DNA of 64,000 nucleotides from Clostridiales bacterium UBA5448 (lineage in GTDB: Bacteria; Bacillota; Clostridia; Oscillospirales; SIG627): contig DIRA01000025.1 in the NCBI GenBank assembly GCA_002427425.1, positions 921-64,920 of the forward strand, read 5' to 3'. The notes beneath the pieces were generated by a model. That model saw nothing but the letters and a program-made list of their open reading frames with translations. It ran no database searches and was not told the origin of the DNA. Of this stretch, positions 5,599 to 64,000 are shown one piece after another (within the stretch, counting starts at the first letter, position 1; the number at the start of each line of letters is the position of its first letter). Position numbers and translations under genes: made by a program.

Positions 5599-5615
5599 AA
5601 CAAATAAAGGAGGAT

Positions 5616-5945
5616 ATGAGTATGACCATTGGTGAAAAAGTAGCCCATCTGAAAGGTCTTATGGAAGGATTAAACATTGGTGAAGCTACACCTGAAGCAA
5701 AAACTCTTGCCAAAATCGCTGATATCTTAGAAGACATGGCCCTTGCAATCGAAGATTTGGATGATGAATGTGCTTCTCTGAACGAATATCTTGAACAGAT
5801 CGATGAAGATCTTGGTAGAGCGGAAGAAGAAATTTACGGCGATTGGGAAGACGATTGCTGTGACTGTGATGATGAATGTGATGATGAATGCTGCTGCGAT
5901 TGTGGCTGCGAAGATGATTCCGACATCGTCGAAGAAGAGAAGTAA
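5616..5945 (+). CDS. CD1247 N-terminal domain-like protein with a Cys/Asp/Glu-only C-terminal tail
   Basis: Helical acidic N-terminal part (GEKVAHLKGLMEGL..ILEDMALAIEDLDDE) as in the efp-linked CD1247 family. AAGGAGGA RBS; the start may be ATG 5622. Confidence 0.6.
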   Translation: MSMTIGEKVAHLKGLMEGLNIGEATPEAKTLAKIADILEDMALAIEDLDDECASLNEYLEQIDEDLGRAEEEIYGDWEDDCCDCDDECDDECCCDCGCEDDSDIVEEEK

Positions 5946-5960
5946 GAATTATCAGCCTAT

Positions 5961-6000
5961 AAAAAAACGACCATTTTTTAAATGGTCATTTTTTTATTTT
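5961..6000. terminator. Bidirectional rho-independent terminator
   Basis: A-run, stem GACCATTT (5969-5976) / AAATGGTC (5980-5987), then T-run. It lies between convergent genes. Confidence 0.65.
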
Positions 6001-6643
6001 ACTGCTTCTTTGCGCCATACTCAATCATCGCCTGATATAATTTCAAGTTGTCATTGTATGTGCTTTTGCTTGGTACATTTCGAATACAGATTAACGTCGA
6101 GCCGGGCAAGGCATTGAATCCGTCTGTTTGAGAAACATTCAAATCTTTCAGACGAATGGCACAATCGTCATATGCGTTGTCAGGAACATATCCCAACGTA
6201 TCTTCAAAAGGAACCACTTTATTAGTTTCACGCAAAATGTTATATAAGAACCCATCAACCAAAAGTATGATTGAATCCCCTGCTGCAATTTCCAATTGAA
6301 AACGCTCCATGGTTTCAGCATGTTTGGCAGCATTCAATGCCTCATTGCTTGCATACATTTCGGTGGGTGCCAATTGAAGTGAGATGAAATTCATGGCCAA
6401 TTGCCCGTCCCCATTATAATCATCGATCAATGAAAATACAGTTGTTTCCATTTCCTCTATTTCCGTTTTGCTGATCAAGTCATAGCCTGCGTACATCAGA
6501 TGTACATCCGGTTCCACTTTATTGAACAATTGAACGGTACAAATGATGATAACCATCAAAATAAATCCGACAACCAAGGTGACTGTCTTGTAATGATACC
6601 AATAATTATCCAGCCATTGGCGGAAAGTCATTTTTTCCGGCAT
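5999..6643 (-). CDS. Hypothetical membrane-anchored protein
   Basis: 214 aa with a single N-terminal TM (VTLVVGFILMVIIICTV), then a soluble domain. No family recognised. Confidence 0.55.
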   Translation of the reverse strand: MPEKMTFRQWLDNYWYHYKTVTLVVGFILMVIIICTVQLFNKVEPDVHLMYAGYDLISKTEIEEMETTVFSLIDDYNGDGQLAMNFISLQLAPTEMYASNEALNAAKHAETMERFQLEIAAGDSIILLVDGFLYNILRETNKVVPFEDTLGYVPDNAYDDCAIRLKDLNVSQTDGFNALPGSTLICIRNVPSKSTYNDNLKLYQAMIEYGAKKQ

Positions 6644-6656
6644 ATCATTCCCCTAC

Positions 6657-8198
<1,542 letters not shown>

Positions 8199-8678
8199 TT
8201 ACAGAATTTCCAATACTTTCAGCTTTAATTTACCTTTGAGTGTTTCACAGGTGGTTTCCTGTCCCAATCCCAATCCCAACAGAGCTTTGCCGATGGGGGA
8301 TTCGTTGCTGATTTTATTTTCCAAAGGAGCAGCTTCCGTTGTACCCACGATGATGTATTCATGTATCGTGACGGTTCCTTCGGGGGTGGTTTTTTCAATT
8401 TTCACTTTATGTCCCAAAGAAACACTATTGTCATTGGAAGGAGAAGCAATGATCTGAATGTGATTCAACATTTCTTCCAATTCAAAAATTCTTGACTGGA
8501 CTTTCCCTTGTTCATTCTTAGCTTCTTCATATTCGCTGTTTTCGGATAAATCCCCAAAGGCTTTAGCTTGGGCAAGCATTTCGTTGACTTCCGGACGGCG
8601 TTTCAACTTCAAGTAATCCAGCTCATCTTTAATAGCTTGAAGACCTTCCTGTGTAACCATTGTAACTTTTGTAGGCAT
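8199..8678 (-). CDS. greA: Transcription elongation factor GreA
   Basis: AKAFGDLSENSEYEEAKNEQ coiled-coil tip motif plus a C-terminal FKBP-like domain. Confidence 0.95.
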   Translation of the reverse strand: MPTKVTMVTQEGLQAIKDELDYLKLKRRPEVNEMLAQAKAFGDLSENSEYEEAKNEQGKVQSRIFELEEMLNHIQIIASPSNDNSVSLGHKVKIEKTTPEGTVTIHEYIIVGTTEAAPLENKISNESPIGKALLGLGLGQETTCETLKGKLKLKVLEIL

Positions 8679-8710
8679 AATGGTATCTCCTGTATCAATT
8701 TATTTCAATA

Positions 8711-9928
8711 TTAAGGTTTCTTCACATAGTTCAAAGGATTGACGGCAGTCCCATTGGAATATACCGTAAAGTGTAAATGCATGCCGGTGGAACGACCGGT
8801 TGTTCCCACCTTGCCGATCTGTTCGCCCAGCTTCACCTTATCCCCTACCTTTACGGAATAGGAGGTTAAATGAGCATAGAGGGTGGAAATGGTTTTTCCG
8901 TTGCTGGTACCGTGTTCAATAATCACACAGTTGCCGAACCCACCGTAGTATTTGGCAAGAATCACCTTACCTGCCGATGCGGCATATACCGGGGGTGTGC
9001 TTCCGTATGTAGCAATATCAATACCGTTATGATATTCAGTTGACCCGGTAAAGGGATCGGATCGGTAACCAAAGGAAGAACTGATATAGCAAGAGGCTGT
9101 TTTCAACGGCCAGATCATATCGCCACTGAACAATACCTTTTCTTTTTCTTTGATCTGTTTATTCAAGGATACCAGCATGGCGGAAATTTCAGCATTGGTT
9201 CTTTCTTCTTCCGCCTGTAGTTCTTTGAGCTTTTCTTTGTCCGCTTCCGCTTCGAAAATCAAAGAGGTGGCGTTGGCAATCCGGACTTCACAGACGGCAG
9301 CCAAAATGACTTGTTCCCGGTAGGAAGATTTATATTCATTCAGTACCGCTTCCGTTTCGGATTTTTTCACTTCTAAATCCGCAATATCATTGGTAATGCT
9401 TTGAATCAACTCATAATCGTAATCCAAAATATCCGTGGTATTGGTGGTTCTGGAAACAAATTCGGAAAAGTCTTTGGATGACAATGCATACGACAGTTTT
9501 TCCATGGTGCTGTAGGTTTGCGAAATCTTCATCAATGCAAGAAATGCCATCGTTCCGCTTTCAATCCTGGATTCCAACGTATCGATTTGGGTTTCATACT
9601 CACCCAGCAAATCGCCGTAAATTAAAATCAGATCCTTATAAATATTGATTTCTGACTGAATGGCCAAATATTCATCGTCCATCTTTTGCTTTTGAACCAA
9701 TATAGAACTGGTTTGTTTGTCCAATTTTGATAACTCAGAAGCAATGCGATCAAGCTCACCTTTCACATTTTTTAATTGATTTTCTTTAGATTTCTTTTCG
9801 GAAATGAGCTGATTGTAGCTTTTTTCAGCACGGACGACTGGACAGGATACCGAAAAAACAGATATACAAGATGATACAATCAAAAGAAAAGCGAATGCGA
9901 AATGAAATACTCTCTTCATTCGTTTCAT
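8711..9928 (-). CDS. M23 family peptidoglycan DD-metalloendopeptidase with coiled-coil N-terminus (EnvC-like)
   Basis: Signal/TM, long coiled coil, then HNGIDIA..HLHF M23 motifs. It lies directly downstream of ftsEX. Confidence 0.85.
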   Translation of the reverse strand: MKRMKRVFHFAFAFLLIVSSCISVFSVSCPVVRAEKSYNQLISEKKSKENQLKNVKGELDRIASELSKLDKQTSSILVQKQKMDDEYLAIQSEINIYKDLILIYGDLLGEYETQIDTLESRIESGTMAFLALMKISQTYSTMEKLSYALSSKDFSEFVSRTTNTTDILDYDYELIQSITNDIADLEVKKSETEAVLNEYKSSYREQVILAAVCEVRIANATSLIFEAEADKEKLKELQAEEERTNAEISAMLVSLNKQIKEKEKVLFSGDMIWPLKTASCYISSSFGYRSDPFTGSTEYHNGIDIATYGSTPPVYAASAGKVILAKYYGGFGNCVIIEHGTSNGKTISTLYAHLTSYSVKVGDKVKLGEQIGKVGTTGRSTGMHLHFTVYSNGTAVNPLNYVKKP

Positions 9929-47945: not shown

Positions 47946-49610
47946 GTGAAAAACATTCCTTTTGGGGAAGTCTTGCGAGAGCTGGGTTATATCACCGAAG
48001 AACAGCTCCAACAAGCATTAAAAGAACAAGCTAAGGACAAAACCCAACGACTTGGGACCATTATTTTGCAGCTCGGTTTTATCACCGAGCAACAGTTGCT
48101 TGAAGCACTGGGACAAAGGCTCAATATTCCCTTGATCAACATTGAGACCTATCCTGTTTCTCTGGCTGCGGTCATCAAAATACCCAGACAGTTAGCGCAG
48201 AAATATAAACTGATTGCGATCGGTGAAAAAAACGGTGTTTTGATTCTTGCTGTCAATGATCCGCTGGATTTGTATGCCATAGAAGATATCCGGCAAGTCA
48301 CAAATTTACCCATTGAAATCAAGATATCAAAATTAAATTCCATTGAACATGCCATTGAGTATTATTATTCTGAAGTTGAAACAAGCCAGGCTGTCAAGAA
48401 AATAGAAACAGAAATTGCAGCAACGGTTTCAAAAGCCAATATCCAAGAAGACGAGGATATTGATACCCCCGTGGTCAAGTTTCTGAACTCGTTGCTGTTG
48501 AGAGGCTATTTTGCTCATGTCAGTGATATTCATATCGAAATATACGAAGATAAAACCGTCATCCGAAACAGAATTGATGGTATGATCGTTGATTATACAA
48601 CCATGTCCTCTGCCATGCACGCCTCTTTGATTGTCAGACTCAAAATCATGTCCAATATGGATATTGCTGAAAAACGATTGCCACAAGACGGTCATTTTAA
48701 AACAAACATTGGGGATGTTGAGATCAACGCCCGTGTTTCCGTGATCCCAACCGTATATGGCGAAAAGGCGGTTATACGTTTTTTATATACGAATACAACC
48801 ATTGACCATTCCGAAATGTTCGGTATGTCGGAGGATAACTATCTCAAGCTTGTCAAGATTTTGGGTAATCCTCATGGTATTATTTACATCACCGGGCCTA
48901 CGGGAAGCGGAAAAACGACTACTTTATATATGGTATTGGAACGGCTTCTGAAAAAAAATGCCAATATATCCACCATTGAAGATCCGGTGGAACGTGTTAT
49001 CAATAGAATCAACCAGATGCAAGTCAATAACGTTTCCGGCCTCACCTTCAGTACCGGATTGAGAGCCCTGCTCAGACAAGACCCGGACATCATCATGGTA
49101 GGCGAAACACGTGATGCTGAAACCGCATCCATCTCGGTACGCGCCTCCATAACAGGCCACCTTGTGCTTTCAACCTTGCATACCAACGATGCCGTATCCT
49201 CGATTGCGCGTTTGGTTGATATGGACGTCCCCCCTTATATGATTGCAAGCTCATTGGTGGGGGTTGTTGCGCAACGTCTGGTTCGTAAAGTTTGTCCTCA
49301 ATGCGGATACGAATATGATCCGGAATCAACCGAGAAGGAAATTATGGGCATTGATCTGGAAAAGGTTCGTAGAGGCAAAGGATGCGATTTTTGTCTTCAG
49401 ACAGGATATAAAGGAAGAGTGGCCATCCATGAAGTTTTGGATATTGATAAGAATATCCGCCGCATGATTACCCAAAACGCGATGATGGATGATATATATG
49501 ATTACGCTATCCATGAACAAGGTGTCACTACCTTAAAAGACAGCGTTCTTCAACTGGTCAAAGACGGGATTACCACCGTGGATGAAATGTCCGCCATCAC
49601 CTATAGTTAA
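47946..49610 (+). CDS. pilB: GspE/PulE family pilus assembly ATPase (PilB)
   Basis: N-terminal MshEN/GSPII-like domain, Walker A GPTGSGKTT, Asp box, Walker B IIMVGETRD, His box LSTLHTND, tetracysteine CPQC..CDFC. Confidence 0.9.
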   Translation: MKNIPFGEVLRELGYITEEQLQQALKEQAKDKTQRLGTIILQLGFITEQQLLEALGQRLNIPLINIETYPVSLAAVIKIPRQLAQKYKLIAIGEKNGVLILAVNDPLDLYAIEDIRQVTNLPIEIKISKLNSIEHAIEYYYSEVETSQAVKKIETEIAATVSKANIQEDEDIDTPVVKFLNSLLLRGYFAHVSDIHIEIYEDKTVIRNRIDGMIVDYTTMSSAMHASLIVRLKIMSNMDIAEKRLPQDGHFKTNIGDVEINARVSVIPTVYGEKAVIRFLYTNTTIDHSEMFGMSEDNYLKLVKILGNPHGIIYITGPTGSGKTTTLYMVLERLLKKNANISTIEDPVERVINRINQMQVNNVSGLTFSTGLRALLRQDPDIIMVGETRDAETASISVRASITGHLVLSTLHTNDAVSSIARLVDMDVPPYMIASSLVGVVAQRLVRKVCPQCGYEYDPESTEKEIMGIDLEKVRRGKGCDFCLQTGYKGRVAIHEVLDIDKNIRRMITQNAMMDDIYDYAIHEQGVTTLKDSVLQLVKDGITTVDEMSAITYS

Positions 49611-51105: not shown

Positions 51106-52179
51106 TTATGCCGTTGTACTACAGGAGCCATCTCGAGCTTTCACTCCATGATTAGATGCCGATTGGCAACCCATGCTTTTCTTATTGTCAGACCCTTGGT
51201 TTCCTTCGTTATTACAATCTTTGTCAGAGTCATTTTTACCGTTGTTTGCTTTACCGTTGGATCCTTTGTTGGAAGCATTGTTTTCGTTGTTTGCTTTACC
51301 GTTGGATCCTTTGTTTGAGTTATCGTTGCCGTTATTTGCTTTACCGTTGGATCCTTTGTTTGCATCAAAGCCTTCGTTTGTTTCAGAATCGGAATCATCC
51401 TCTTTGGGATTTTGTTCTCGATTCTGTTTTTCTTCCCCTTTATTTCTTGCTTGCTCCCTATTTTGTTTGGTTTGAGCCATAATATCTTTGACAGATTTAT
51501 TGAGCCATTCATTGATATCAATGCTTTCAGGATCATCAGCGCTTGCTTTTAATTTTTCAACCAAATTCAGTTTTCCCGGTGTTACTCCCAATTCTCTTGC
51601 TTGTTCAACTCTTTTTTTACCAATCGCTTCCGCATTGATAGATGCTTTACAATTGTTTTGTTCGCATGATTCGTTGGCTGTTTCCTCCAGATTCTCCGCC
51701 AATTCTTGGGCTTTTTCCATATCATCACCTGACGTTGATATGACAATTCCTGCCCCATCGGCATCCAGATAGCCTTTGCGTGCAATTTCATCGACCGTGG
51801 ACGAAATAGCATTCTGAATGTTTTTATGCTTCAGATTGTCAAGTTCTATTTCATCAATAATTTCTGAACCATCGTCATTCACACCGGTTGCCGAAAGAAC
51901 TCTGTCAAACATATTAACAGCGTATTCGATGGAAGGGTTAACATCGAGACTTACATAAGTAGTCGGTGTATAATAGGCCGCTACGCCACCACTGATTAAC
52001 AATACCAAACAAGCTGCCGCAGCAAAAGATGCTAACTTTTTAAAATTGAATTGCTTTTTCATACTCATTTTAACCTCCTGCCCTAATTCGTAGTTTTGGT
52101 TTTTTACCTTAACGATGCAACCGTCATCAGAAAGCAAAACAGCCGTATTGCCGCGAATTTCTACGATAACCGCTTTCAT
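51106..52179 (-). CDS. Anti-sigma-I factor RsgI-like protein with low-complexity C-terminal tail
   Basis: RsgI N-terminal domain (MKAVIVEIRGNTAVLLSDDGCIVKVKN), one TM, and an extracellular SLDVNPSIEYAVNMFDRVLSATGVNDDG module. The tail is Asn/Gly/Lys/Asp-rich with three 15-aa repeats. Confidence 0.75.
   Translation of the reverse strand: MKAVIVEIRGNTAVLLSDDGCIVKVKNQNYELGQEVKMSMKKQFNFKKLASFAAAACLVLLISGGVAAYYTPTTYVSLDVNPSIEYAVNMFDRVLSATGVNDDGSEIIDEIELDNLKHKNIQNAISSTVDEIARKGYLDADGAGIVISTSGDDMEKAQELAENLEETANESCEQNNCKASINAEAIGKKRVEQARELGVTPGKLNLVEKLKASADDPESIDINEWLNKSVKDIMAQTKQNREQARNKGEEKQNREQNPKEDDSDSETNEGFDANKGSNGKANNGNDNSNKGSNGKANNENNASNKGSNGKANNGKNDSDKDCNNEGNQGSDNKKSMGCQSASNHGVKARDGSCSTTA
51245..51360. 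repeat. 45-bp coding tandem repeat (about 2.6 copies)
   Basis: TTTGCTTTACCGTTGGATCCTTTGTT recurs at 51245, 51290 and 51335. It encodes NKGSNGKANN(G/E)(N/K)(D/N)(N/A/D)S units on the minus strand. Confidence 0.85.
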
Positions 52180-52180
52180 A

Positions 52181-52897
52181 TTACTTTTCTTCCTTTCTAA
52201 TGAATGTTACATATTCGGCTAAAAAGGGATACTCTCCGGACAGTATCTCTATCGCCGCTATTATATATCTACGATGATGTTCGATTAATTTTCTGGGTAG
52301 GCCCGTTTTTTTTTGAATTTTTTTTATCGGCATTTGTTTTGCTTCCTTCATTATCCGCATTATTTCTTGGTTTTCAAGGATATGTAATATAACTTTTTTG
52401 CATGCTTCCTTTGTTTTTTTGGATTTAGGAGAACAGGAAGCAAGATCGTAAAATGTAAATCCATATTCATTGATAACAGGAGTAATGGCTTCAATTTCAT
52501 CTCGAATAGAATGATTGTCTTGATATATCAATTGTTTCGCTACCGAAATTTTAATGGCTATATCAGCTTCCTCTTCATTGGATTCACATTCAAATAGACT
52601 TGGATCGACAAGGTATTCCGGCTTGTACTTTTGTTCCGATCTGTAATAGTCAATCAGCCTGTTTTTTATGATGGTTTGGGCATAATGCAAAAAGCCTCCT
52701 TTGCTTTTCGCATACGTCTTGACGGCATCTGAAAAAGCAATCAATGCAATGGACCACTCATCATCATTTTTAGATATATATTTTTTTGATGTTTTTGAGG
52801 CAGATCTCAAAATAAACTGGCTTTGGCTTTCAATCAATTCTGAAAGCAAATGATTGTCATTCGCCGCATGTAAAGCTAACTCATCAATATATTCCAA
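52181..52897 (-). CDS. sigI: RNA polymerase sigma factor SigI-like
   Basis: 238 aa; region 2 (DDEWSIALIAFSDAVKTY..FLHYAQTIIKNRLIDYYR) and a C-terminal HTH (IQKKTGLPRKLIEHHRRYI). 1-nt gap to the anti-sigma gene. TTG start. Confidence 0.8.
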   Translation of the reverse strand: MEYIDELALHAANDNHLLSELIESQSQFILRSASKTSKKYISKNDDEWSIALIAFSDAVKTYAKSKGGFLHYAQTIIKNRLIDYYRSEQKYKPEYLVDPSLFECESNEEEADIAIKISVAKQLIYQDNHSIRDEIEAITPVINEYGFTFYDLASCSPKSKKTKEACKKVILHILENQEIMRIMKEAKQMPIKKIQKKTGLPRKLIEHHRRYIIAAIEILSGEYPFLAEYVTFIRKEEK

Positions 52898-53159
52898 TGT
52901 GCTATCCCCATTCCAAATTCATTACCTATCCTCATTATACAACATTTTTCTTATTATTCATACTCATACTATCAATTATATTGGTAATATGCAACATGAA
53001 CCGTAAGCTGCGTGTTTCTTGCATATGTTTTTGATCTCATTTTCTTACTTGCATCCTCCTACCTCCGTATTAGTTTCCCTTCTTTCATGTGTTATTTTTA
53101 CGCCTCTGTAGGTCGCCGCTTGTTGCAATATGTACCCTATATTCTCAAGCAGATCGCTT

Positions 53160-53468
53160 CTATCTCAAATAAACACGACCTCTCTCTTTTGCCGCACCCA
53201 TGCCAATCAGCAAAATATCCACTGTCCACCAATAAACGAGGAATGAAAGGCTGAACAAAAATAGAATAACAAAGTTTGGCGCCATTGTCTCAAGCGCAGT
53301 TCCGATTGCGGAAAACATGGATATTGTCCAACAAGTCAGCAACAGCTTCAAAAAACCTCGAAGCCAATATTTCATAACAAAGCGATCCGCCCCACACCAT
53401 CCAAAAAAACCGAAAGCAGAAAAACGGTTTTCCTTTTTTTCGATCCCTTTGAAAGCGGCTGGTAGCAT
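53160..53468 (-). CDS. TM2 domain-like membrane protein (possibly the 3' part of a frameshifted gene)
   Basis: FSAFGFFGWCGADRFVMKYWLRGFLKLLL resembles the TM2 domain. It overlaps the next ORF in another frame across a homopolymer run. Confidence 0.5.
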   Translation of the reverse strand: MLPAAFKGIEKKENRFSAFGFFGWCGADRFVMKYWLRGFLKLLLTCWTISMFSAIGTALETMAPNFVILFLFSLSFLVYWWTVDILLIGMGAAKERGRVYLR

Positions 53469-54225: not shown

Positions 54226-54771
54226 TTATTCTATAACACTATATTTCTGGAATAAATTGCTAAAGAACTGCTTCAAGTTGTTGAGCACTTTTTGCTTTGC
54301 ATCTCCACCATCGCTTGTTCCAATAAACTCATATCCGCCAAATCTGTAAACGTCATAACCACATAGGCTCATTTCACGGTGTACTTTTACCATTTCACTA
54401 TAGAGCTTAGGAGAAGCCCTATCACCGTCAGCATAATGCTGTTTTCCATCGATTTCTATAACAACTCTATTTCTATGTGAAATAATCATCAGAAAATCCA
54501 TCTTCTGATGCTCAAATAGTTTATAGCCACGCTCTTTTTGAGTTTGTGGATCATAATAAAGATAAACCTGTGGTATTAGCGCAGGTAAATCTACACCCAA
54601 TTCGCCTTTCAATTCATAGTAAGCCTGTAATAGCCATGTTTCAGGACCGCTTTTCTCACCGTTTGCTTTAAAACTTGTATCTAAGCAGTCACATAACCTG
54701 CTAATGAACGCATTTTCTTGATTACTATCTATTGCATTTTCTGAAGCATACCATTCTACTAAATTATCCAA
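54226..54771 (-). CDS. DUF559/Vsr-like (PD-(D/E)xK-fold) protein coupled to mcrC
   Basis: ..KMDFLMIISHRNRVVIEIDGKQHY..REMSLCGYDVYRFGGYEF follows the DF..(n)..E.DG..H..(n)..GY.V.RF pattern of DUF559/Vsr-like endonuclease domains. The TTG start directly abuts the mcrC stop. Confidence 0.55.
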   Translation of the reverse strand: MDNLVEWYASENAIDSNQENAFISRLCDCLDTSFKANGEKSGPETWLLQAYYELKGELGVDLPALIPQVYLYYDPQTQKERGYKLFEHQKMDFLMIISHRNRVVIEIDGKQHYADGDRASPKLYSEMVKVHREMSLCGYDVYRFGGYEFIGTSDGGDAKQKVLNNLKQFFSNLFQKYSVIE

Positions 54772-55836
54772 TTACACGACTACGGCGCTGAAGTGTTCTT
54801 CTGCTATGGCATTGAGTTGTACTGCAATGCTCTTAAAATCACAGCTCAGATCCAGTGTTTTGACACTAATCTTATTTCCACTCATTTGGTAAACGCCATC
54901 AGGTTGTATTGTTTCGTCTGTTCGCGCATATAAGAGCATTCCAGAGACCTCATGCGGTTTATCGCCAAACTGTGTGTCCTTGTTTTTTACATAGGTAAAA
55001 ATTTGATACAGATTGTTTGAATGCAAAGTATGTGCATCAAATTGAACCTGCGTGGTGTGCGTGTAATACTTCGCGTCTATGATGAGAACCTTCTCTCCGT
55101 GCGCCAGAGTAATGTCGCTTTGCATAACGGGCAGCATCGTTCCGACCCCGTCATCCAGCGCCCACGGAATTTGCGACGCGCTTACATTCAGCATTGGATA
55201 CTCTTTGATGTAGTATTCGAGTATGAATTTCTCGTACAGGCGGCTCATTCTTTGCTCATCTACGAACGACGCCAATTTGTGCTCACCTTGCTCCGTGGTC
55301 AGGAGCATACCCTCAATGATGAACTGGCACAGGCTTATCAACATCCGATAGGTCTGATTGTTGCGCTGAAAGCGGATGGCCGACCACTTTATGCTCGTAA
55401 GGTCGATGGTGTCCACATTGGCAAAAAACAGCATCCTTTTCTTGAGCTCGTCTTTATATTCGGCTTTTACATCCTTTTGACGCAACAGTAGCATGACGGT
55501 TGTTTTCAGGATCTGGTTAAGAAAGTTGTTCTCGGACAGCTCATCATACTCGCAGGTCAGCACACGCTCTCTGGCGATCCTATTTTTGATAGTTCCGGGC
55601 ATATCAATTTTTCCGCGAACCACCGCAAGCTCTTCGGTGCGGTTTAGATATTCGCGGTAGATACCCTGCTTTAACTGCTGCCCTATACCTTTGGAAAGGA
55701 TAGCCGCAAAGAGGTCGTGCATATTATCAAACTCTTCTGTAGCCACTTCCTCAAAATTCGACTGGTTCAGCGTCGTAAAAGCGTAAGACAGCATATAGTA
55801 AATATTTTTTATGAATATGCTCTTATCCTTTATCAT
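54772..55836 (-). CDS. mcrC: McrBC restriction system nuclease subunit McrC
   Basis: Typical N-terminus (IKNIYYMLSYAF..FEEV..F.NMHDLFA..L) and C-terminal PD-(D/E)xK (VLIIDAKYY). Start ATG 55836 overlaps the mcrB stop (ATGA). Confidence 0.85.
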   Translation of the reverse strand: MIKDKSIFIKNIYYMLSYAFTTLNQSNFEEVATEEFDNMHDLFAAILSKGIGQQLKQGIYREYLNRTEELAVVRGKIDMPGTIKNRIARERVLTCEYDELSENNFLNQILKTTVMLLLRQKDVKAEYKDELKKRMLFFANVDTIDLTSIKWSAIRFQRNNQTYRMLISLCQFIIEGMLLTTEQGEHKLASFVDEQRMSRLYEKFILEYYIKEYPMLNVSASQIPWALDDGVGTMLPVMQSDITLAHGEKVLIIDAKYYTHTTQVQFDAHTLHSNNLYQIFTYVKNKDTQFGDKPHEVSGMLLYARTDETIQPDGVYQMSGNKISVKTLDLSCDFKSIAVQLNAIAEEHFSAVVV

Positions 55837-58229
55837 TGGAACACACCATGCAGGATGTTCTCCCATCTTTGGAGCTTGGCACTGTCATCAAACCAATACT
55901 CACTCAGCATGGGGAGTATGTCATAATCTACGATAGAGCGCAGCCATTCGTCGGTACAGGCCGTTTGACCACAGAAATAGCTGTGACCAATGCAGAATCC
56001 CTTTCCCAGCGATCTGTCAAGAGTTATCTCCTTGTTGAGTTCAATAATCTTTGCAATCAGCTCGTTTAGTGTTTCGTTATTCAGGGATTTCTGGTATTTC
56101 ATAAAGCCTTCCGAGTCAAATCCGGGTTCAACCTCGAAGAAGCTAAAACGGCGACGCAGAGCGTAATCTATCATCGCAAGGCTACGGTCGGCGGTGTTCA
56201 TCATGCCGATATTATACAAGTTTTTGGGGACAGAAAACGAGAGCCCGTTGTATGCCAATGTCGCCTTTGTACCTCGATAGTCACGCTCTATCAGCATGAG
56301 TAACTCTCCGAATATCTTGCTCATATTGCCGCGATTGATTTCGTCGATAATAAAGAAATAATCCTTATCCGGCTGGTTTGCGGCCTTTTGGCAGAAACGG
56401 TAGAATATTCCTGATTTTAGTTCAAATCCGTCATTTACAGGCTTGTACCCCATCATAAAGTCCTCATAGGAGTAGTTTTGATGGAACTGTACAAATTCAA
56501 TCCGGCTCTCATCCTTTTCGCCCATGATGGAATACGCAAGGCGTTTAGCAGCAAATGTTTTTCCAACACCCGGAGCGCCCTGCAGGATGATGTTTTTCTT
56601 GTTCTGCAGGACGGAAACCAGCATATCATATCGGCTCTCACTCATATACACTTCGTCAAGGAAATCCGCTTTGCCATACTTTTCTGCGGAGTCTTCGGTG
56701 GAAACGGGGTTTTCATCACGGATAATGTCGATTATAAAATCGTATTCGCCCTTTGTCAGCTTGAATAAGCTGCCTTGCGGATTGCTGAAATATTCCATCC
56801 GTTCAAGCTCGGAGCAGCTTTTAAGCGTCAGGTAATCAATCGGCGAAGTGAGTCCTTCGACCTTTTCAAAGAAGATTTTTTCACCGTCCTGCTCGGCGCT
56901 TATCCTGCCGATAGCCACAATCTGTTTAACAGGGTTGGACTCATAACCGATTATCATATCTCCGGCTTTTGCATCCAAGAAATTCTGGAATATTCTACGC
57001 TTATTTCCGTTGTCGTTGTAAAGCGTGTACGATTGAACTTCACCAACTGCGATGTCTGCGAAGCTCCAGATTTTCGGATTGGCATTCAACCACCAGTAAC
57101 CGTGCTCCTCTTCACCGGGAGCAGATGCCACATAAAGTTCCACCTGACTGAGGTCAACTTTATCAAGCGCGGCGGAGAGCTCATCGCGCAACTTCCATGT
57201 ATAACTGCCATCATCTTCTTTTCCTGCATTGCGACCGAGATACAGAATAGGCCACCAGCGTGAGCTTTCGGTGTCACGTTCCATTACGGGGCAGCCCGTT
57301 TTCTCCGCTACACGCCGCGCCAATGACGAGGATCCGCTATTGTAGAAGTTTTTCGTTTCGCCGTATTTGATTGCAAGCTGGGTGCAGGTGGCCTGCCCGC
57401 CATAGTCTTTCATTCGCTTCATGATTTCGAGACTGCCGGTAGTAAACACTTCGGAGTCTCCGAGAAGCTGTATCCACTCATCTGTAGAGATTTCAGGCGA
57501 ATAATCCGCCGGGAACCAATCCTCGGTATTTGCCGGTTCTTTATCCTTCTGTGAGAAATAGCGGCTGATATAAAAGCCAACATCAATCGTAAGTGTCCTC
57601 AGTTCAGGATCAGGATAACAGGAGTCCGTCAATTGGGATTTAAGTAGACCTGTGAGACTATTGTCGTTTTTGAGTTCCTCGCACATATCATCGTACAGAG
57701 CATAAAAATTCCGTAGATTATCTGTGTAGGCACCCTTTTTGAAACGATAGTCACTGCCAAGCTCATCAGCGACGGCTTTAACTTCGCCGTATTTGTAAAT
57801 GTAATATTTGTCGGGAAAGCGCAGCCAAAGATAAGTGCTGACGGCATTTTCATACTGATAATGCTGTCCCGCACCATTCCCGTACTTTTCAAGCAATAAA
57901 GAGGATTTGTCTTTAAACTCAAGGATTCTGGTAACGACGTCGTTGCTCTCATCAAACAAGGCGATAAACATTGCCCGCACTTCTTCAGGGGCTGTCTTTG
58001 CAAAGCCCTCGATCATCTTTGCCGGGAAGTTATTCATGGACGCAAGCAGGTTATATGTCTTTGACAGGGAGCGGGTTAGCATACCGGCAAAATCCGTCGC
58101 ATTCACATCCCAGTTATCTTGGAAAACCTTTACTGCTTCCCATTTGTATTGTTCGTTTCCCCACTGTGTAGAAACAAAATCCTGCTTGTACTTTGCGAGT
58201 GCTTCCTGCAAACGGAATTTGTCAAACAT
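55833..58229 (-). CDS. mcrB: McrB-family GTPase with extended N-terminus including an EVE/PUA-like domain
   Basis: The C-terminal AAA+ has LQGAPGVGKTF, FHQNYSYEDF, FFIIDEINRGNMSKIFGEL. Residues ~370-500 (YWWLNANPKIWSF..GDMIIGYES.P.KQIVAIG..) look like an EVE domain. About 360 further N-terminal residues are unassigned. Confidence 0.85.
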   Translation of the reverse strand: MFDKFRLQEALAKYKQDFVSTQWGNEQYKWEAVKVFQDNWDVNATDFAGMLTRSLSKTYNLLASMNNFPAKMIEGFAKTAPEEVRAMFIALFDESNDVVTRILEFKDKSSLLLEKYGNGAGQHYQYENAVSTYLWLRFPDKYYIYKYGEVKAVADELGSDYRFKKGAYTDNLRNFYALYDDMCEELKNDNSLTGLLKSQLTDSCYPDPELRTLTIDVGFYISRYFSQKDKEPANTEDWFPADYSPEISTDEWIQLLGDSEVFTTGSLEIMKRMKDYGGQATCTQLAIKYGETKNFYNSGSSSLARRVAEKTGCPVMERDTESSRWWPILYLGRNAGKEDDGSYTWKLRDELSAALDKVDLSQVELYVASAPGEEEHGYWWLNANPKIWSFADIAVGEVQSYTLYNDNGNKRRIFQNFLDAKAGDMIIGYESNPVKQIVAIGRISAEQDGEKIFFEKVEGLTSPIDYLTLKSCSELERMEYFSNPQGSLFKLTKGEYDFIIDIIRDENPVSTEDSAEKYGKADFLDEVYMSESRYDMLVSVLQNKKNIILQGAPGVGKTFAAKRLAYSIMGEKDESRIEFVQFHQNYSYEDFMMGYKPVNDGFELKSGIFYRFCQKAANQPDKDYFFIIDEINRGNMSKIFGELLMLIERDYRGTKATLAYNGLSFSVPKNLYNIGMMNTADRSLAMIDYALRRRFSFFEVEPGFDSEGFMKYQKSLNNETLNELIAKIIELNKEITLDRSLGKGFCIGHSYFCGQTACTDEWLRSIVDYDILPMLSEYWFDDSAKLQRWENILHGVFQ

Positions 58230-58240
58230 GGTATCCCTCC

Positions 58241-61207
58241 TTATGCATTGCGCAGGCTCTTGTATATTTCATCAGTGAAATTTCCAAGCACCTGTCGCTT
58301 TATCTCGTTGCTGCTGAGAAGCAGAGAGAAGAAGTCCTGATTTTGTGATAGCCCTTCGATAAGGGCATCGTCTATATCGTCAAAATAAGAGAATTCAAAA
58401 TCTTTGACGGTGTTATTTTTCGCGCTTGTTTTCAGCTTTTCAGATTTCAACAGTAAGTCCCTGATCTGAAGCATGGCTTTGACCGCCACATCGTTATCAT
58501 AGGATTTTCCTGTCCGGCTGTTGATTTCCGCTATGATTTGGGACAGGCGCTCCTCCTTGGCTTCCGTCAAGCCGAAGCTTTCGGCGGTGGCGAGCTTTAC
58601 AACCGGCGAAGCGACCAGTTTGGGGTTTGCGACCTCATCGCCCTTTTTCTGCACAAAATTTGTAGCTTTGATTTTTCCATCAAGGTTATATCCGCCGCCC
58701 GGATGCTTAATATTGATGTATGCAAGCAGATAAGTCATAAAGTTGTATTTCTTATGCAAATCCACATCTTCAAAGCAGGACACCTGCAGCATGAACTCAT
58801 AGAAGCGCACGAAATGGCGCATCAGGGCAACAATTTCCTGCTGCTTCGCTATGTCATAATTTTCAATGAGGTTCTTTGCCTTTTTGAAATAGAATGTCAG
58901 TTTCTGCTTATCCTTGGATGAAATTTTGTCCTTGTAGAGCAGCTCGTTGGCTTTTTCAATATCGTCCGGGTCAAGAACGGTATATGCGTCGGTTTTTGCC
59001 TCAAGGTCATAAATAGCAGTCGGGGTGACGGAATTTGCAAGGAGTGTCGTTGTATAATACGGAGCGAACGCGTCCTGAATATCCTTGTAGTCATTCACAA
59101 AATCCAGCACAAAGGTCTTTTTCTCAAATGGCGGGCAAATACGGTTCAGGCGCGACAGCGTTTGCACTGCCGATACGCCTTTTAGCTTTTTCAGCACATA
59201 CATGGCGCACAGCTTTGGCTGGTCGAAGCCTGTCTGATACTTATTGGCAACCAGAAGAACCTGATAATCGTCGGTGTCAAAAGCCTTTGTCAGCTTGTCC
59301 TCGGAGAAGCCGTTCATGGAGGCTTCGGTGTATTCCGTGTCATCGTCCGGGAGCTTTACTTTGCCCGAAAAGGCTACAAGAGCGCGAATGTCGGAGTATC
59401 CCTTTTTCGTAATATAGTCCTCAAATGCTTGACGGTACTTTACTGCGCCCTGCCGGGATGCAGTGATGACCATAGCCTTTGCCATACCGCCCAGCTCTGT
59501 CATAACAGAGGTGCGGAAGTGCTCGACAATTACCTCTATCCGCTGCGCGATATTTGTTTCGTGCAGTTCCACGAAACGGGCAATTTGCCGTTTGGCATCC
59601 GTTGTCTTGCAGCGGGGATCGTCTTCAATTTCCTTATTTATCTGATAGAAGGTCTCATAGCGGGTGTAGTTTTGCAGCACATCCAGAATGAAGCCTTCTT
59701 CGATTGCCTGTTTCATGGAGTAAACATGGAAAGCAGCACGCTGTCCCTTTGTGTTCAGACGCCCGAATAGCTGAATCGTTGTTGGCTTCGGCGTGGCAGT
59801 AAACGCGAACATGGATACATTCGCTTGCTTGCCGTTGCGTTTGATTTCGTCAGTGATCATGTCCTCAACATCGGCAATATCCTGATCACCGGCTCCGAGG
59901 GACTGCGTAACAGCGGCCATATCTTTTCCGGCAGTGGAGGAGTGCGCCTCGTCAATGATTACGGCAAAGCGCTTATTCTTCAATCCAGCGACATTGTCCA
60001 CGATATACGGGAACTTTTGAATCGTGGTAGCAATGATTTTTGTATTGCCGTTCAGGGCAATTGCCAAGTCCGCCGAATTGCACTTATCATCCATAACGCG
60101 GATGAGCCCCGCCTTGTGCTCCATACCCATAATGGCTTGTTGAAGCTGGCGGTCAACCACCACGCGGTCAGTGACGATGATAATGTTGTCAAAGATGATT
60201 CTGTTGTCGGCATCGTGCAGCGATGTCAGCCGGTGCGCCAACCATGCGATGGAGTTCGTTTTGCCGGAACCGGCGCTGTGCTGAATCAGGTAATTTTGCG
60301 CTGTGCGATTTTCTTCTACATCCGCCAGCAGTTTACGAATGACATCGAGCTGGTGATAGCGCGGGAAAATAAGGTTCTCCGACTTTTTGATTTTGCCGGT
60401 AACCTCGTCCTCTTTTTCCTTCGTTTCGATAAAAATGAATTTGCTGATAAGGTCGAGAACGGTGTCCTTCGTCAGAATATCCTCCCACATATAAGACACG
60501 CTGTATTTGTCCTTAAAGGTGGGATTGCCCGCTCCGGCATTGACGCCTTCGCCGTTGCCGATATTAAACGGCAGGAAAAAAGTAGAATTGCCGTTTAGCT
60601 TTGTGGTCATATAGACCTCTTCCAAGTCCATCGCAAAATTCACCAGACAGCCCGCTTTGAAAAGGAATAGGCGGGTCTTCGGATTGCGATCAACGCGGAA
60701 CTGATAAATGGCATCCTGATAGGACTGACCGGCGGCGTTACACTTAAGTTCAAAGCTCATGATGGCAAGCCCGTTCAGGAAAATCACGAGGTCGATGCAC
60801 TCTTCGTCGCTTGCCCAAACCTCCTCCATAACAGAGAAGATGTTTTTATTGTATTTCTCCAGCAGCTCCTTGTTAAAGGTCGTTGCCGGCTTGGTGTACA
60901 TCAGCTCCAGCTTCATGCTGGAGATCTCAATGCCGTGTTTCAACACATCAAGCAGACTGCCGCGAGCTTTCGTTTCCTCGGCGTTGATAAAGCTGACGAT
61001 GGTGTCTTCCAAATCGTCCTTGTATATTTTGCGGAGGGCAGCCATCGCTTCGGGCTGCGTGTCGTTGAGAAAGCGGAACAGCAGCTCACGGTCTACGGCA
61101 AAAAAGCGGTCATAGCTGGTGGCTTTGCGGATGGTATAGCCGTTGTCCTGCTCCAACCGTTCCATGATGAAATGCTGATATTCTTTTTCAGATAGAATGT
61201 CATTCAT
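58241..61207 (-). CDS. hsdR: Type I restriction endonuclease subunit R
   Basis: N-terminal nuclease domain, SF2 helicase motifs (HSAGSGKTNS, VIIDEAHSS, FTATP, QTGFDQP), long helical C-terminus. 988 aa. Confidence 0.9.
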   Translation of the reverse strand: MNDILSEKEYQHFIMERLEQDNGYTIRKATSYDRFFAVDRELLFRFLNDTQPEAMAALRKIYKDDLEDTIVSFINAEETKARGSLLDVLKHGIEISSMKLELMYTKPATTFNKELLEKYNKNIFSVMEEVWASDEECIDLVIFLNGLAIMSFELKCNAAGQSYQDAIYQFRVDRNPKTRLFLFKAGCLVNFAMDLEEVYMTTKLNGNSTFFLPFNIGNGEGVNAGAGNPTFKDKYSVSYMWEDILTKDTVLDLISKFIFIETKEKEDEVTGKIKKSENLIFPRYHQLDVIRKLLADVEENRTAQNYLIQHSAGSGKTNSIAWLAHRLTSLHDADNRIIFDNIIIVTDRVVVDRQLQQAIMGMEHKAGLIRVMDDKCNSADLAIALNGNTKIIATTIQKFPYIVDNVAGLKNKRFAVIIDEAHSSTAGKDMAAVTQSLGAGDQDIADVEDMITDEIKRNGKQANVSMFAFTATPKPTTIQLFGRLNTKGQRAAFHVYSMKQAIEEGFILDVLQNYTRYETFYQINKEIEDDPRCKTTDAKRQIARFVELHETNIAQRIEVIVEHFRTSVMTELGGMAKAMVITASRQGAVKYRQAFEDYITKKGYSDIRALVAFSGKVKLPDDDTEYTEASMNGFSEDKLTKAFDTDDYQVLLVANKYQTGFDQPKLCAMYVLKKLKGVSAVQTLSRLNRICPPFEKKTFVLDFVNDYKDIQDAFAPYYTTTLLANSVTPTAIYDLEAKTDAYTVLDPDDIEKANELLYKDKISSKDKQKLTFYFKKAKNLIENYDIAKQQEIVALMRHFVRFYEFMLQVSCFEDVDLHKKYNFMTYLLAYINIKHPGGGYNLDGKIKATNFVQKKGDEVANPKLVASPVVKLATAESFGLTEAKEERLSQIIAEINSRTGKSYDNDVAVKAMLQIRDLLLKSEKLKTSAKNNTVKDFEFSYFDDIDDALIEGLSQNQDFFSLLLSSNEIKRQVLGNFTDEIYKSLRNA

Positions 61208-62472
61208 GAAATCGGCACCTCCTTTTTCCCTGTGACATACTCAAAGATGAGTGATTTTTTATATTCGTCAAGTGTTGCAAGCTGCGACTGCTTGTCCGAG
61301 ATTACAGCATTGATCTCGTTGGACTTTTTATCAAGATAATCGGCAATTTCATTCTGCTCATCAACAGGCGGATAAGGGACATATGTGTTACCAAAATCCG
61401 CAAACGCAATATTTTTACCATCTCTAAGCGTCATTGTATACGAATTCATCTTTTCAATAAATCCGCTTTCCTTAAAGAGATACTTGTAATACCCATCTGC
61501 GATTTCAACAATTGCATGGAAGACCTGATAAGCAGGTGAAACGACACCTTCATATTCGGAATATTCAAAACCACCTTGAAAACTTCTGAGGCTAATGCAA
61601 TAGTCGCCTTTATGAATTGTTTTCAGGAGTGCCAAATCAGCTTTTTCATTCAATTTAACTGCGCTCATACCAGACAGCTCTTCATATTGAGCTTGTGGGA
61701 TAACTCCATATTTTTGAGTAGGAGAGAGTAACTGCAATTCTATATAATTTCCTCGTTGATTTCGTTGCACAAATAGGTACTTTCCTTTTTGTGTATTCCA
61801 AGAAGTAGGAATCTTTCCAATCCATTCTATCCCGCTGTCCTTCATATCAGTATCGGGGTTCAGCCCCTTCGTGACTGCTTCTGTAATAACGGAACGCTTA
61901 TACTGCTCCAGCGTATCAATTTGCGATTGAATATCAGCGGTCAGCGCATCAATCTCGTCGCATTTTTTATTGAGAAATGCAGATATGTCTTGCTGTTCTG
62001 TCAATGGCGGCACAACTGTAGGAACGGCTCCAAGCTGATCTTCTGTAAGTGAATGTCTTAGATTCTTAGCCAAATGCAAAAGAGTTTTGTCCATATCGAG
62101 CATTGTATAATAATAGCAATAGTATGATGCATCTGTATTTGCTGTTAATACGAACTGACTGTATGCAGGACTTGTTACTCCTTCCTTCTTAATTAAGCCC
62201 ACACATCGGGGGGTAACATCAATGTCAAACAAGCACATTAAAAGGTTCCCGGCGCATATGCGCTGATAACCATCAAAGGAAGTTGGCATTTTCCCTCCGG
62301 CATCTAAATCTCTAACAATAACCCCCTTCATTGTTAGGGACAGAATGTCTTCGCCATTATAAATCGGGCAAATTTCTTTTACCTTATGCATAAGGTATTT
62401 GTTAGGCATAACTTCCCAGTTTGCTGGTATGCTCTTTACCCACTCAATTCCGCTATCTTTCATCTCACGCAT
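61204..62472 (-). CDS. hsdS: Type I restriction-modification specificity subunit S
   Basis: Two target-recognition domains, each preceded by MKDSGIEW(V/I)..IP..W and followed by conserved coiled-coil repeats (QIDTLEQYKRSVITEAVTKG / QLATLDEYKKSLIFEYVTGK). Confidence 0.9.
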   Translation of the reverse strand: MREMKDSGIEWVKSIPANWEVMPNKYLMHKVKEICPIYNGEDILSLTMKGVIVRDLDAGGKMPTSFDGYQRICAGNLLMCLFDIDVTPRCVGLIKKEGVTSPAYSQFVLTANTDASYYCYYYTMLDMDKTLLHLAKNLRHSLTEDQLGAVPTVVPPLTEQQDISAFLNKKCDEIDALTADIQSQIDTLEQYKRSVITEAVTKGLNPDTDMKDSGIEWIGKIPTSWNTQKGKYLFVQRNQRGNYIELQLLSPTQKYGVIPQAQYEELSGMSAVKLNEKADLALLKTIHKGDYCISLRSFQGGFEYSEYEGVVSPAYQVFHAIVEIADGYYKYLFKESGFIEKMNSYTMTLRDGKNIAFADFGNTYVPYPPVDEQNEIADYLDKKSNEINAVISDKQSQLATLDEYKKSLIFEYVTGKKEVPIS

Positions 62473-62851
62473 CAGCGGGCACCTCCGTTTGGGGCTTCTT
62501 TTTGTGGCTACGGATGAAAAGCGTCACTGCCGCCACGATTCCGGCAACTGCCGCGACTCCACCCAGAATGCACAACACCATAACCCAGTTTGCAGTAAGC
62601 CATTTAACAGCAACAATCACGCCATAGGTGACTGCCCACAGTGCGATAAACAGCACAGCACGAATCAGCCAGTGCATGAAGGTGCCGCTTGTCCTACCGC
62701 CAATGGCACCGCTGCGATACAGATCGCCCACACAACTGTACGCGATACTGACAGCCACAGCTCCGATGACCGTCAAAATCAAATACTCCCAATACCACTC
62801 AATGGGCAATCCAAGAGGGTCTGTCAGTATGCCAAATAAAAATTTGAACAT
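62465..62851 (-). CDS. Uncharacterised 128-aa four-TM membrane protein embedded between hsdM and hsdS
   Basis: AAGGGGGA RBS 7 nt before ATG 62851. Four hydrophobic helices and a basic C-terminal tail (RSHKKKPQTE). Its stop overlaps the hsdS start by 8 nt. Confidence 0.7.
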   Translation of the reverse strand: MFKFLFGILTDPLGLPIEWYWEYLILTVIGAVAVSIAYSCVGDLYRSGAIGGRTSGTFMHWLIRAVLFIALWAVTYGVIVAVKWLTANWVMVLCILGGVAAVAGIVAAVTLFIRSHKKKPQTEVPADA

Positions 62852-62866
62852 TCATTTTCCCCCTTG

Positions 62867-64000
62867 TTATTCAAATAGTTTCGCCACACGCTCGCTGACC
62901 GAAAGCTCCAGCTCTGTAAAACGGGCTTCCAACTCCTCGCTGGGCGTGGGTTGTTGATATTTGTAGAAATAGCGTGTGAATGGGATCTCTGCACCGGTCT
63001 TGATGACCGGCTTTTTTGCGCCGAGATTTTCCTCAAAGAACGCAGCAGCGTCAGGGATATGAGGCAGCACCTCTCGCGCCATATAGGTGTCGATATCTTC
63101 TTCAAATTTGACGATTTCGGTGTCCTTCGTCTCCTTGTCGTAGATGATATTGCCCTTTTTGTCGTGCTGTACCTTGGCGCTTTTATCCATAGCGGACAGC
63201 CCGTCGGCGATCTTGTCGATGAGCTTTTTGTCGGCGGTCGCACCAGCAAGCGCTTTTGTCAATACCGGCAGAAACTCTTTGTCCGTAAGATAGACTTTTT
63301 CGGATATAGCCGCTTCCAAAGCGGCGACCACGGCGTCAAACACCGGCTTATTGTTCTGATAATTTTCCAGCTTCTTTGCGTCCTTGCCGGTGAGCTCCTC
63401 GGCATTTTCAAGTTCCTCAACCTTTGCCTCATCGTAGAGCGAGAAGAGGGAGCCTTTTGAGAGCATGGCCTGAATGCGCTCCTCCGTGATGGCATAGCTG
63501 CGCTGGAGGGGCTGCATTACCGCATATTCACGGTAAATGAACTCCTCATTCATATAGATTTTACAAACCTCGTTTTCTTCAAAATCTGCATACAGCTTCG
63601 TAATGGTGCTGCGGTCTTCCGGGGCAATTTCGTTTTTCTTGTTGCCCAGTGCCTTGCGGAGTTTGTGGTATATCTGCGAAGCGTCGATGAGCTGAATCTT
63701 GCCTTTGCGCTCGGCGCGTTTATTCTTAGAAAGTACCCAGATATAGGTGGCAATTCCGGTGTTGTAGAACAGGTCTGTCGGCATGGCAATGATCGCTTCA
63801 ATCAAATCGCTTTCCAGCAGCCAGCGACGGATCTGGCTCTCACCGGACGCCGTGCCGCCGGAGAACAGCGGACTGCCATTCTCAATGATGGCGCAGCGAC
63901 CTAAATTGTCATCCAGCTTGTTAATAGCGGACTGCAAAAACAGCATCTGCATATCGCCGGAACCGGGCAGCCCGGCACCCCAACGACCGTCAGAGCCTTT
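62867..64000 (-). CDS. hsdM: Type I restriction-modification N6-adenine DNA methyltransferase subunit M (partial, 5' end off-window)
   Basis: The frame is open to the window edge. It has the post-catalytic HsdM region (GSPLFSGGTASGESQIRRWLLE.DLIEAIIAMP..LFYNTGIATYIWVL) and a long helical C-terminal extension. Confidence 0.9.
   Translation of the reverse strand, partial: KGSDGRWGAGLPGSGDMQMLFLQSAINKLDDNLGRCAIIENGSPLFSGGTASGESQIRRWLLESDLIEAIIAMPTDLFYNTGIATYIWVLSKNKRAERKGKIQLIDASQIYHKLRKALGNKKNEIAPEDRSTITKLYADFEENEVCKIYMNEEFIYREYAVMQPLQRSYAITEERIQAMLSKGSLFSLYDEAKVEELENAEELTGKDAKKLENYQNNKPVFDAVVAALEAAISEKVYLTDKEFLPVLTKALAGATADKKLIDKIADGLSAMDKSAKVQHDKKGNIIYDKETKDTEIVKFEEDIDTYMAREVLPHIPDAAAFFEENLGAKKPVIKTGAEIPFTRYFYKYQQPTPSEELEARFTELELSVSERVAKLFE

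Follow-up and report, generated by a model that had tools for sequence, protein, structure and literature searches.

An optional small membrane protein gene at the hsdM-hsdS junction of a clostridial Type I restriction-modification operon

What is a gene for a small membrane protein doing between hsdM and hsdS, the genes of the two methyltransferase subunits of a Type I restriction-modification (R-M) enzyme? The question is raised by a stretch of 64,000 nucleotides from Clostridiales bacterium UBA5448 (contig DIRA01000025.1, positions 921 to 64,920), hereafter the window. An earlier note on this DNA had reported a 128-residue open reading frame (ORF) with its own strong Shine-Dalgarno sequence between hsdM and hsdS, at 62465-62851, and it was found as stated. 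The gene, on the minus strand, and its product are both called X here. No barrier to DNA entry is commoner than Type I R-M, which phages and plasmids overcome with DNA-mimic inhibitors; to our knowledge, PrrC and RonA (Enterobacteria) are the only back-up mechanisms known to be wired into Type I components. X is a real protein-coding gene under purifying selection. It forms an optional, translationally coupled cassette, inserted exactly where hsdM and hsdS meet in a complete Type I operon.

The hsdM-hsdS junction and its optional gene

The operon and its junctions are laid out as follows.

62867-64000, minus strand: hsdM, partial, at least 361 C-terminal codons, running off the end of the window (Pfam N6_Mtase, 8e-26; PADLOC MTase_I, 5e-108)
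62858-62865, minus strand: Shine-Dalgarno sequence of X, AAGGGGGA, inside the hsdM-X gap (direct sequence reading)
62465-62851, minus strand: X, ORF with an ATG start, 128-residue small membrane protein of an unnamed family
62480-62486, minus strand: Shine-Dalgarno sequence of hsdS, GGAGGTG, within the 3' end of the X ORF (comparison of junctions with and without X)
61204-62472, minus strand: hsdS, 422 residues (Pfam Methylase_S; PADLOC Specificity_I, 2e-85)
58241-61207, minus strand: hsdR, 988 residues (HSDR_N, ResIII, SWI2_SNF2 and T1R_D3-like domains; PADLOC REase_I)

The Type I operon is complete and co-oriented, as hsdM, hsdS and hsdR each have a Pfam and a PADLOC match; full-length relatives of the window hsdM encode 700 residues with HsdM_N and N6_Mtase domains. 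On the coding strand, the hsdM stop codon TAA (62869-62867) is followed by C-AAGGGGGA-AAATGA, a gap of 15 nt, and then by the ATG of X. At the other end, the TGA of X (62467-62465) and the ATG of hsdS (62472-62470) share ATGCGTGA; the overlap of the X stop with the hsdS start, also reported earlier, is thus 8 nt as read from the sequence. The hsdS stop in turn overlaps the hsdR start by 4 nt; in relatives too, hsdR comes after hsdS. X has its own Shine-Dalgarno sequence, and its last codons supply the ribosome-binding site and start of hsdS; its synthesis is therefore joined to that of HsdM and HsdS. The T-E-V tail, shared by the close relatives of X, is kept because its codons, ACG-GAG-GTG, hold the hsdS Shine-Dalgarno sequence. 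This constraint acts at the RNA level, and T-E-V was ruled out as a functional C-terminal motif of the protein.

A search anchored on the C-terminus of the window HsdM gave the 80 best metagenome loci, with HsdM proteins 80-89% identical to it. X is present in 15 of these. In the remaining 65, the hsdM stop is followed by a 12-nt spacer (e.g. GGCGGTGATGAT) and the hsdS ATG. X is therefore not a subunit needed for restriction or modification, and its being an obligate R-M subunit or membrane anchor was ruled out. In a neighbour-joining tree of HsdM, the loci with and without X are interleaved. Comparison of junctions (L001, L009, L015 and L096 among those with X) showed a clean indel with a Shine-Dalgarno sequence at either boundary; the junction without X resembles a fusion of the ribosome-binding sites of X and hsdS.

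The earlier note had asked whether homologues of X recur between hsdM and hsdS, and they do. Two close homologues were followed to 14 metagenome places with at least three different flanking contexts, and all 14 have hsdM (700 residues), X and hsdS with overlapping ends. A scan of genomes with an intermediate alignment (A3) returned 35 loci with a relative of X, mostly from Clostridia, including Ruminococcus flavefaciens ATCC 19208, Roseburia amylophila, Bovifimicola, Oscillospiraceae and Acutalibacteraceae. The context was readable in 34, and the order was hsdM-X-hsdS in 21. The same order was found in 6 of 7 IMG/VR loci, and a relative with 35% identity stands in the order hsdM-X-hsdS-HATPase_c_3-hsdR. 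At these junctions, the stop and start codons either overlap or adjoin. Among the 21 genome loci is a second class of HsdM, of about 580 residues, where the copies of X are 46-56% identical to that of the window. The divergence of HsdM tracks that of X (Pearson 0.65). Where another gene is inserted upstream of X at the junction (L026, L139), X stays coupled to hsdS; in L032, X has passengers on both sides.

Two of these other passengers of the hsdM-hsdS junction are uncharacterized proteins, one of 260-274 residues (70% identity between two loci) and one of about 239 residues, whose gene follows X in one locus and precedes it in another; Pfam matches neither. Passengers lie at L026:6184-7008, L032:5668-6450, L032:6908-7627 and L139:3-482. 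Six loci, some with X and some without it (L018, L040, L026, L059, L085 and L127), have an hsdS divided among two or three ORFs or a frameshift in hsdM. The cause could be decay into pseudogenes, phase variation or an error of assembly, and it bears on whether X would be toxic without HsdMS.

A second cargo site lies between hsdS and hsdR. Empty in the window (61204-61207), this gap is hypervariable in relatives (L001-L014, L015-L041, L148), where it holds a TIR protein (252 residues), an uncharacterized protein of 327 residues, DUF4238, FRG with a small membrane protein, DUF5677, HATPase_c_3, a Zn-ribbon protein (322 residues), or uncharacterized proteins with an N-terminal transmembrane (TM) helix or several. 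Several of these passengers have no Pfam match and are defence candidates themselves. The presence or absence of X combines freely with the content of this slot (TIR, 327-residue protein or none), every combination being found, and the content of the hsdM-hsdS slot is far more constant than that of the hsdS-hsdR slot. In the prr locus, with the order prrA-prrB-prrC-prrD, PrrC sits between hsdS and hsdR. The earlier note, which took PrrC as the precedent for X, had placed it in an equivalent position; this is inaccurate, as the slot of PrrC is hsdS-hsdR and that of X is hsdM-hsdS. For annotation, the two junctions should be treated as distinct cargo slots for candidate defence genes in these operons. 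Upstream of hsdM, the commonest gut variant (L001-L008:3527-5803) has a gene for a 758-residue AAA_13 ATPase preceded by an HTH_17 gene; AAA_13 is, we presume, a P-loop family that includes the ATPase domains of the PrrC/RloC type.

On the far side of hsdR, the operon adjoins a second system.

54772-58229, minus strand: Type IV system, made up of a McrB-like protein (EVE + AAA_5, 798 residues, 55833-58229) and McrC (364 residues, 54772-55866)

With these genes counted in, the locus is a Type I/Type IV composite island in which the hsdM-hsdS junction holds one additional gene. The Type I/Type IV composite is also found in relatives L001-L005, L131 and L135. Beyond McrC, an ORF of 181 residues (54226-54771) has a weak DUF559 match, and beyond the island lie ordinary chromosomal genes (51106-53468, 47946-49610) for a TM2-domain protein, a sigma-70 family factor with an RsgI-like anti-sigma factor, a T2SSE/MshEN secretion ATPase and a thiamin pyrophosphokinase. 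The G+C profile of the window is unremarkable, and no tRNA was found within it.

Conservation, predicted fold and wider family of X

A word-indexed search of a 90%-identity cluster database found 238 homologues of X at E ≤ 0.01. Among the 120 matches listed, identity to X is 63-89%, length is 126-132 residues and none has a Pfam domain. At least 1000 contigs carry one of the homologues, P0066, and those inspected are human-gut metagenome assemblies; its only name is 'hypothetical protein [Coprococcus sp.]'. A second word-indexed search, with a diverse alignment (A2), gave close relatives only. In 1.84 billion representative proteins, searched exhaustively with a profile hidden Markov model, the family amounts to 351 clusters at 50% identity when the cut-off is E ≤ 1e-3 and to 182 at E ≤ 1e-10; almost all are 110-140 residues long. 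The family is large, unnamed and centred on gut Clostridia, and with this size the label 'orphan' given to X earlier is too strong.

Among 14 distinct close alleles, the pairwise ratio of non-synonymous to synonymous substitution rates (dN/dS) is 0.13-0.15 overall. It is 0.10-0.12 for residues 1-82 and 0.55 for the third helix. In 89 relatives of 21-65% identity, L15, A33, G42, H60, W61 and R64 are kept in at least 90%, and the family pattern is PLGLP...IG..A...AY..VG..Y..G.I.G...GS..HW.IR...F...WA.

With the 89-sequence alignment, AlphaFold2 gave a model of X with a predicted local distance difference test (pLDDT) score of 94.8 and a predicted TM-score (pTM) of 0.71, consisting of helices 2-10, 19-47, 53-87 and 89-116. 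The pLDDT was 71 with 26 close sequences only. The fold and topology are confidently predicted to be three TM helices and a short N-terminal helix, with the N-terminus outside and the C-terminus inside (N-out/C-in). The earlier count of four hydrophobic helices is thus to be revised to three, because the N-terminal helix, with nine residues, is too short for the bilayer. The parts of X are the following.

62786-62851, minus strand: residues 1-22, short helix 2-10 and the most conserved motif of the family, TDPLGLPIEWYWEY (family alignments)
62726-62785, minus strand: residues 23-42, hydrophobic core of TM1 (AlphaFold2 helix 19-47)
62672-62725, minus strand: residues 43-60, conserved loop (G..Y..G.I.G...GS..H), predicted cytoplasmic (family alignments)
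62606-62671, minus strand: residues 61-82, hydrophobic core of TM2 (AlphaFold2 helix 53-87)
62513-62587, minus strand: residues 89-113, TM3, Gly/Ala-rich and poorly conserved (AlphaFold2 helix 89-116; dN/dS 0.55)

Residues 1-22 are acidic (mean D+E of 3.0 against K+R of 0.9 in the 89 sequences), and their predicted location is outside the cytoplasm or at the membrane interface. The motif of the loop runs on as W.IR (W61, R64) in the first turn of TM2. TM3 is followed by a basic tail, RSHKKK, the mean K+R of the C-terminal tail being 3.7 across the family. The predicted N-out/C-in topology, with loop 43-60 inside, is supported by the acidic N-terminus, the basic tail and the conserved Arg where the loop passes into TM2.

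That X belongs to no named family, as had been noted, was borne out by all searches. Pfam, NCBIfam, PHROG and PADLOC gave no family match, the only weak hits being NEMP (0.013), DUF4481 (0.018), RTasSLATT (0.01) and holin (0.3-0.8). The 89 diverse relatives, scanned singly against Pfam and PADLOC, pointed to no consistent family, and neither X nor any of them matched one of the 5027 PADLOC v2.0.0 models, PDC candidates included. Foldseek searches of PDB and BFVD with both models of X (pLDDT 71 and 95) returned nothing at E < 0.3 (best E = 0.35), and the X profile against PDB sequences returned only urea-transporter noise (E > 6). Two candidate assignments were rejected as noise from TM composition. 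The SLATT effector match is that of PADLOC RTasSLATT at E = 0.01 and 13.6 bits, with none of the 89 relatives at E ≤ 0.01 and no Pfam SLATT match; the best holin matches are at E = 0.3 (PHROG) and 0.82 (Pfam), with Phage_holin_3_6 weakly in 3 of the 89.

Neighbourhoods were inspected at about 190 loci, compared with 351 family clusters. Away from the hsdM-hsdS junction, relatives of X are about 24-48% identical to it and lie mostly in defence or mobile contexts, with the following neighbours.

L021, L025: HTH-NUDIX, X, AlbA_2/HATPase_c_4, nSTAND NTPase
L042 (Ruminococcus flavefaciens ATCC 19208), 3598-8983: IetAS-like AAA and S8 protease, X, ThsB-TIR and ThsA-Macro
L035-38, L028: Xre-M78-HIRAN, X, WYL-WCX-GNAT
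L045-47: phase-variable hsdS/integrase array, X, Mrr, WYL
P0225: 246-residue HTH protein, 4-nt overlap with X
P0204: 61-residue RHH-like protein overlapping X
L043, L136: HTH-like protein of 366 residues, X
P0145: AbiH fragment, X, DUF5655, in an integrase element
P0250: X convergent with an nSTAND3 NTPase

A recurring theme is the tight pairing of X, often with overlap, with a gene for a DNA-binding protein directly upstream. In L042, from a cultured and genetically accessible strain, X lies between the IetAS-like AAA/subtilase S8 pair and a Thoeris-like pair. The earlier note had held that homologues scattered in unrelated, non-defence contexts would speak against a defence role; those found are mostly in defence islands or integrative elements, and one very distant relative (27% identity, without the HW.IR motif) has housekeeping neighbours. 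Another distant relative is followed by housekeeping-type genes. The family has no match in the plasmid collection, and its match in phage records is a single unannotated 9-kb metagenomic 'phage' record.

Possible functions of X

The likeliest of the readings, put forward tentatively, is that X adds a layer of defence in the form of an R-M-guarded membrane effector. X would arrest growth or depolarise the membrane. The HsdM2S1 complex would either hold it in check or send the signal for its activity, and X would be released when this complex is hijacked, for instance by DNA-mimic anti-restriction proteins. X would then be a functional analogue, not a homologue, of RonA (Ronin) and PrrC (EcoprrI). 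We infer the membrane effect, the contact with HsdM or HsdS and the trigger from anatomy and context. The features that put the guarded effector first are the position of X, its coupling, its accessory status, the conserved loop predicted to be in the cytoplasm, and the pairings of distant members, which resemble those of toxins and antitoxins; the strong constraint on the predicted loop GS..HW.IR and on residues 1-82 was also counted in its favour.

Several observations weigh against a guarded effector. The prediction places the most conserved segment of X, PLGLPIEWYWEY, outside or at the interface, which would suit an envelope function equally. X is intact in L018 and L040, where hsdS is split, and in L026, where hsdM has a frameshift; this would be unexpected if HsdMS were the sole antidote to a toxin, and it counts mildly against the guard reading; these loci are metagenome-assembled genomes or metagenome contigs, so that assembly errors are possible. 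The HsdM residues that best separate loci with and without X (88-93% accuracy) are all in the last 30 or so alignment columns, beside the junction; this is consistent with linkage and probably does not mark an interaction surface. No obvious DNA-binding partner accompanies X in L042, L142 and L146. No homology was found between X and known effector, holin, SLATT or RexB families, and homology to RonA was rejected, hhalign against family alignment A2 giving a probability of 0.17% with 1 aligned column.

Second in rank, and doubtful, is that X is an independent envelope-level defence (superinfection exclusion or a block of DNA injection) acting at the membrane on an infecting phage or a host entry factor, and that it rides the operon for co-expression and co-transfer, like TgvAB. 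The acidic N-terminal PLGLPIEWYWEY region, most conserved and predicted outside or at the interface, would fit such a role, as would the intact X beside a broken hsdS or hsdM, the presence of the family off R-M operons beside diverse unrelated defence genes, and the free gain and loss of X among near-identical operons with all combinations of hsdS-hsdR passengers. Embedded systems that work independently are documented (PMC11411939), TgvAB of V. cholerae acting independently of the Type I system that encloses it. However, X keeps its coupled spot upstream of hsdS in two HsdM classes and down to 35% identity, and hitch-hiking is unlikely given the hsdS-hsdR passenger slot. Phage records, moreover, hold almost no copies of X, and plasmid records none; classical superinfection exclusion (Sie) genes are typically prophage-borne.

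Ranked third, and unlikely, is that X is a non-toxic membrane tether or regulator of its DNA-binding neighbour, HsdM2S1 here and HTH, WYL, Mrr or HIRAN proteins elsewhere. Such a tether would place restriction at the site of foreign-DNA entry, or modulate restriction or methylation, for example during establishment in a new host. Co-translation with HsdM and HsdS, the DNA-binding protein that is usually the immediate neighbour across the family, the conserved predicted cytoplasmic loop and the tolerance of a broken hsdS or hsdM are all consistent with it. However, the 65 of 80 closest operons that lack X make it dispensable for R-M, and the partners are structurally unrelated, so that one surface would need to bind very different proteins. 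Only about 17 loop residues and the variable tail are predicted to face the cytoplasm.

Last, and improbable, is a non-defence membrane function (transport accessory, stress or envelope) or a selfish passenger at a permissive junction: X has no recognisable functional domain, and one distant relative lies amid housekeeping genes while another is followed by genes of that type, but all other annotatable contexts are Type I R-M operons, defence islands or integrative elements, specific motifs of X are under strong purifying selection, and a neutral insert would soon vanish through the Shine-Dalgarno-flanked deletion seen at the junction.

If X is a guarded effector, the principle extends to a new phylum and to complete, nuclease-competent systems. 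A bolder proposal, possible but to be held lightly, is that X is the founding member of an undescribed large family of membrane 'dead-man-switch' effectors, which would be wired into complete Type I enzymes, elsewhere paired with other DNA-binding defence proteins, and would depolarise the membrane when the partner is blocked by phage DNA-mimic anti-restriction proteins. Were this so, Ronin-like anti-anti-restriction immunity would have arisen independently in Firmicutes and would work inside nuclease-competent R-M, not in decoys only. The X family, unrelated to PrrC and RonA and abundant in gut Clostridia, holds the most intimate position in the operon, co-translated between the two methyltransferase subunits. 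Near-identical operons with and without X, such as L096 or L132 against L129, and with varied hsdS-hsdR passengers, are natural controls that make the hypothesis directly testable.

Comparison with known systems

The X family is unnamed and unrelated to known effectors, and no earlier description of a membrane protein between hsdM and hsdS was found in the literature. Accessory genes lodged in Type I R-M operons are known in themselves. One is that of PrrC in EcoprrI, which acts in abortive infection, is kept silent by the R-M proteins and is switched on by an anti-restriction peptide of the phage. X shares with it the embedding in a Type I operon. The two differ in kind and in place: PrrC is a soluble anticodon nuclease, ABC-ATPase-like, with its gene between hsdS and hsdR, and X is a membrane protein of small size encoded between hsdM and hsdS; no ABC-ATPase-like or nuclease domain was found in X with Pfam, NCBIfam and PADLOC, and X consists almost entirely of membrane helices.

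Class I holins have three TM helices, an N-out/C-in topology and a basic C-terminal tail, and RexB, of phage lambda RexAB, is a polytopic inner-membrane effector partnered with the cytoplasmic, DNA-responsive sensor RexA. The layout predicted for X from the AlphaFold2 model and the charges in 89 sequences resembles that of class I holins, including the basic tail. X differs from both holins and RexB in that it has no sequence or fold match to them, lies among R-M genes rather than in a lysis cassette or a prophage immunity region, and has no dual-start motif.

Genes embedded in Type I R-M, BREX or DISARM operons are often defence genes, several of them proven ('guilt-by-embedding', Payne et al., bioRxiv 10.1101/2024.01.29.577857; PMC11411939). 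X is likewise an optional gene nested in a multi-gene defence operon. It differs in its place at a junction within the methyltransferase, in its translational coupling, and in being a bare membrane protein with no enzymatic domain.

The closest parallel in logic is Ronin of E. coli ECOR55 (Silas et al., bioRxiv 10.1101/2023.04.06.535777), in which RonA, a protein of 61 residues with a single TM helix, is linked to hsdS-hsdM, with hsdR absent. By itself RonA is lethal; HsdMS neutralises it, and its triggers are Ocr, ArdA and Aop1, with growth arrest and no lysis as the outcome. Ronin is linked to composite Type I/IV R-M or to BREX (bioRxiv 10.1101/2023.04.06.535777). ronA was located in E. coli D5 (NZ_CP010145, 3907005-3907190), where the order is ronA-hsdS-hsdM and ronA lies 16 nt upstream of hsdS. 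In this locus (L147:5006-7284), a half-size hsdS (200 residues) overlaps hsdM (493 residues), and the locus adjoins a tRNA-Leu and a truncated Arm-type integrase.

X differs from RonA in its 128 residues and three TM helices, in its complete hsdM-X-hsdS-hsdR locus with a full-size HsdS where Ronin has a half-size HsdS and no hsdR, and in its family being that of Clostridia rather than Enterobacteria. The toxicity and triggers of RonA are experimental, whereas X is known here from sequence and context. The two are alike in being small membrane genes placed directly before hsdS, 16 nt upstream in E. coli D5 and with the 8-nt overlap in the window, and in having a Type IV neighbour, which is McrBC beside the X locus. 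They would also share the logic proposed here for X, an effector restrained by HsdMS and freed by anti-restriction proteins. For this guard idea, Ronin with its RonA, which the earlier note did not cite, is a direct experimental precedent, and a better one than PrrC.

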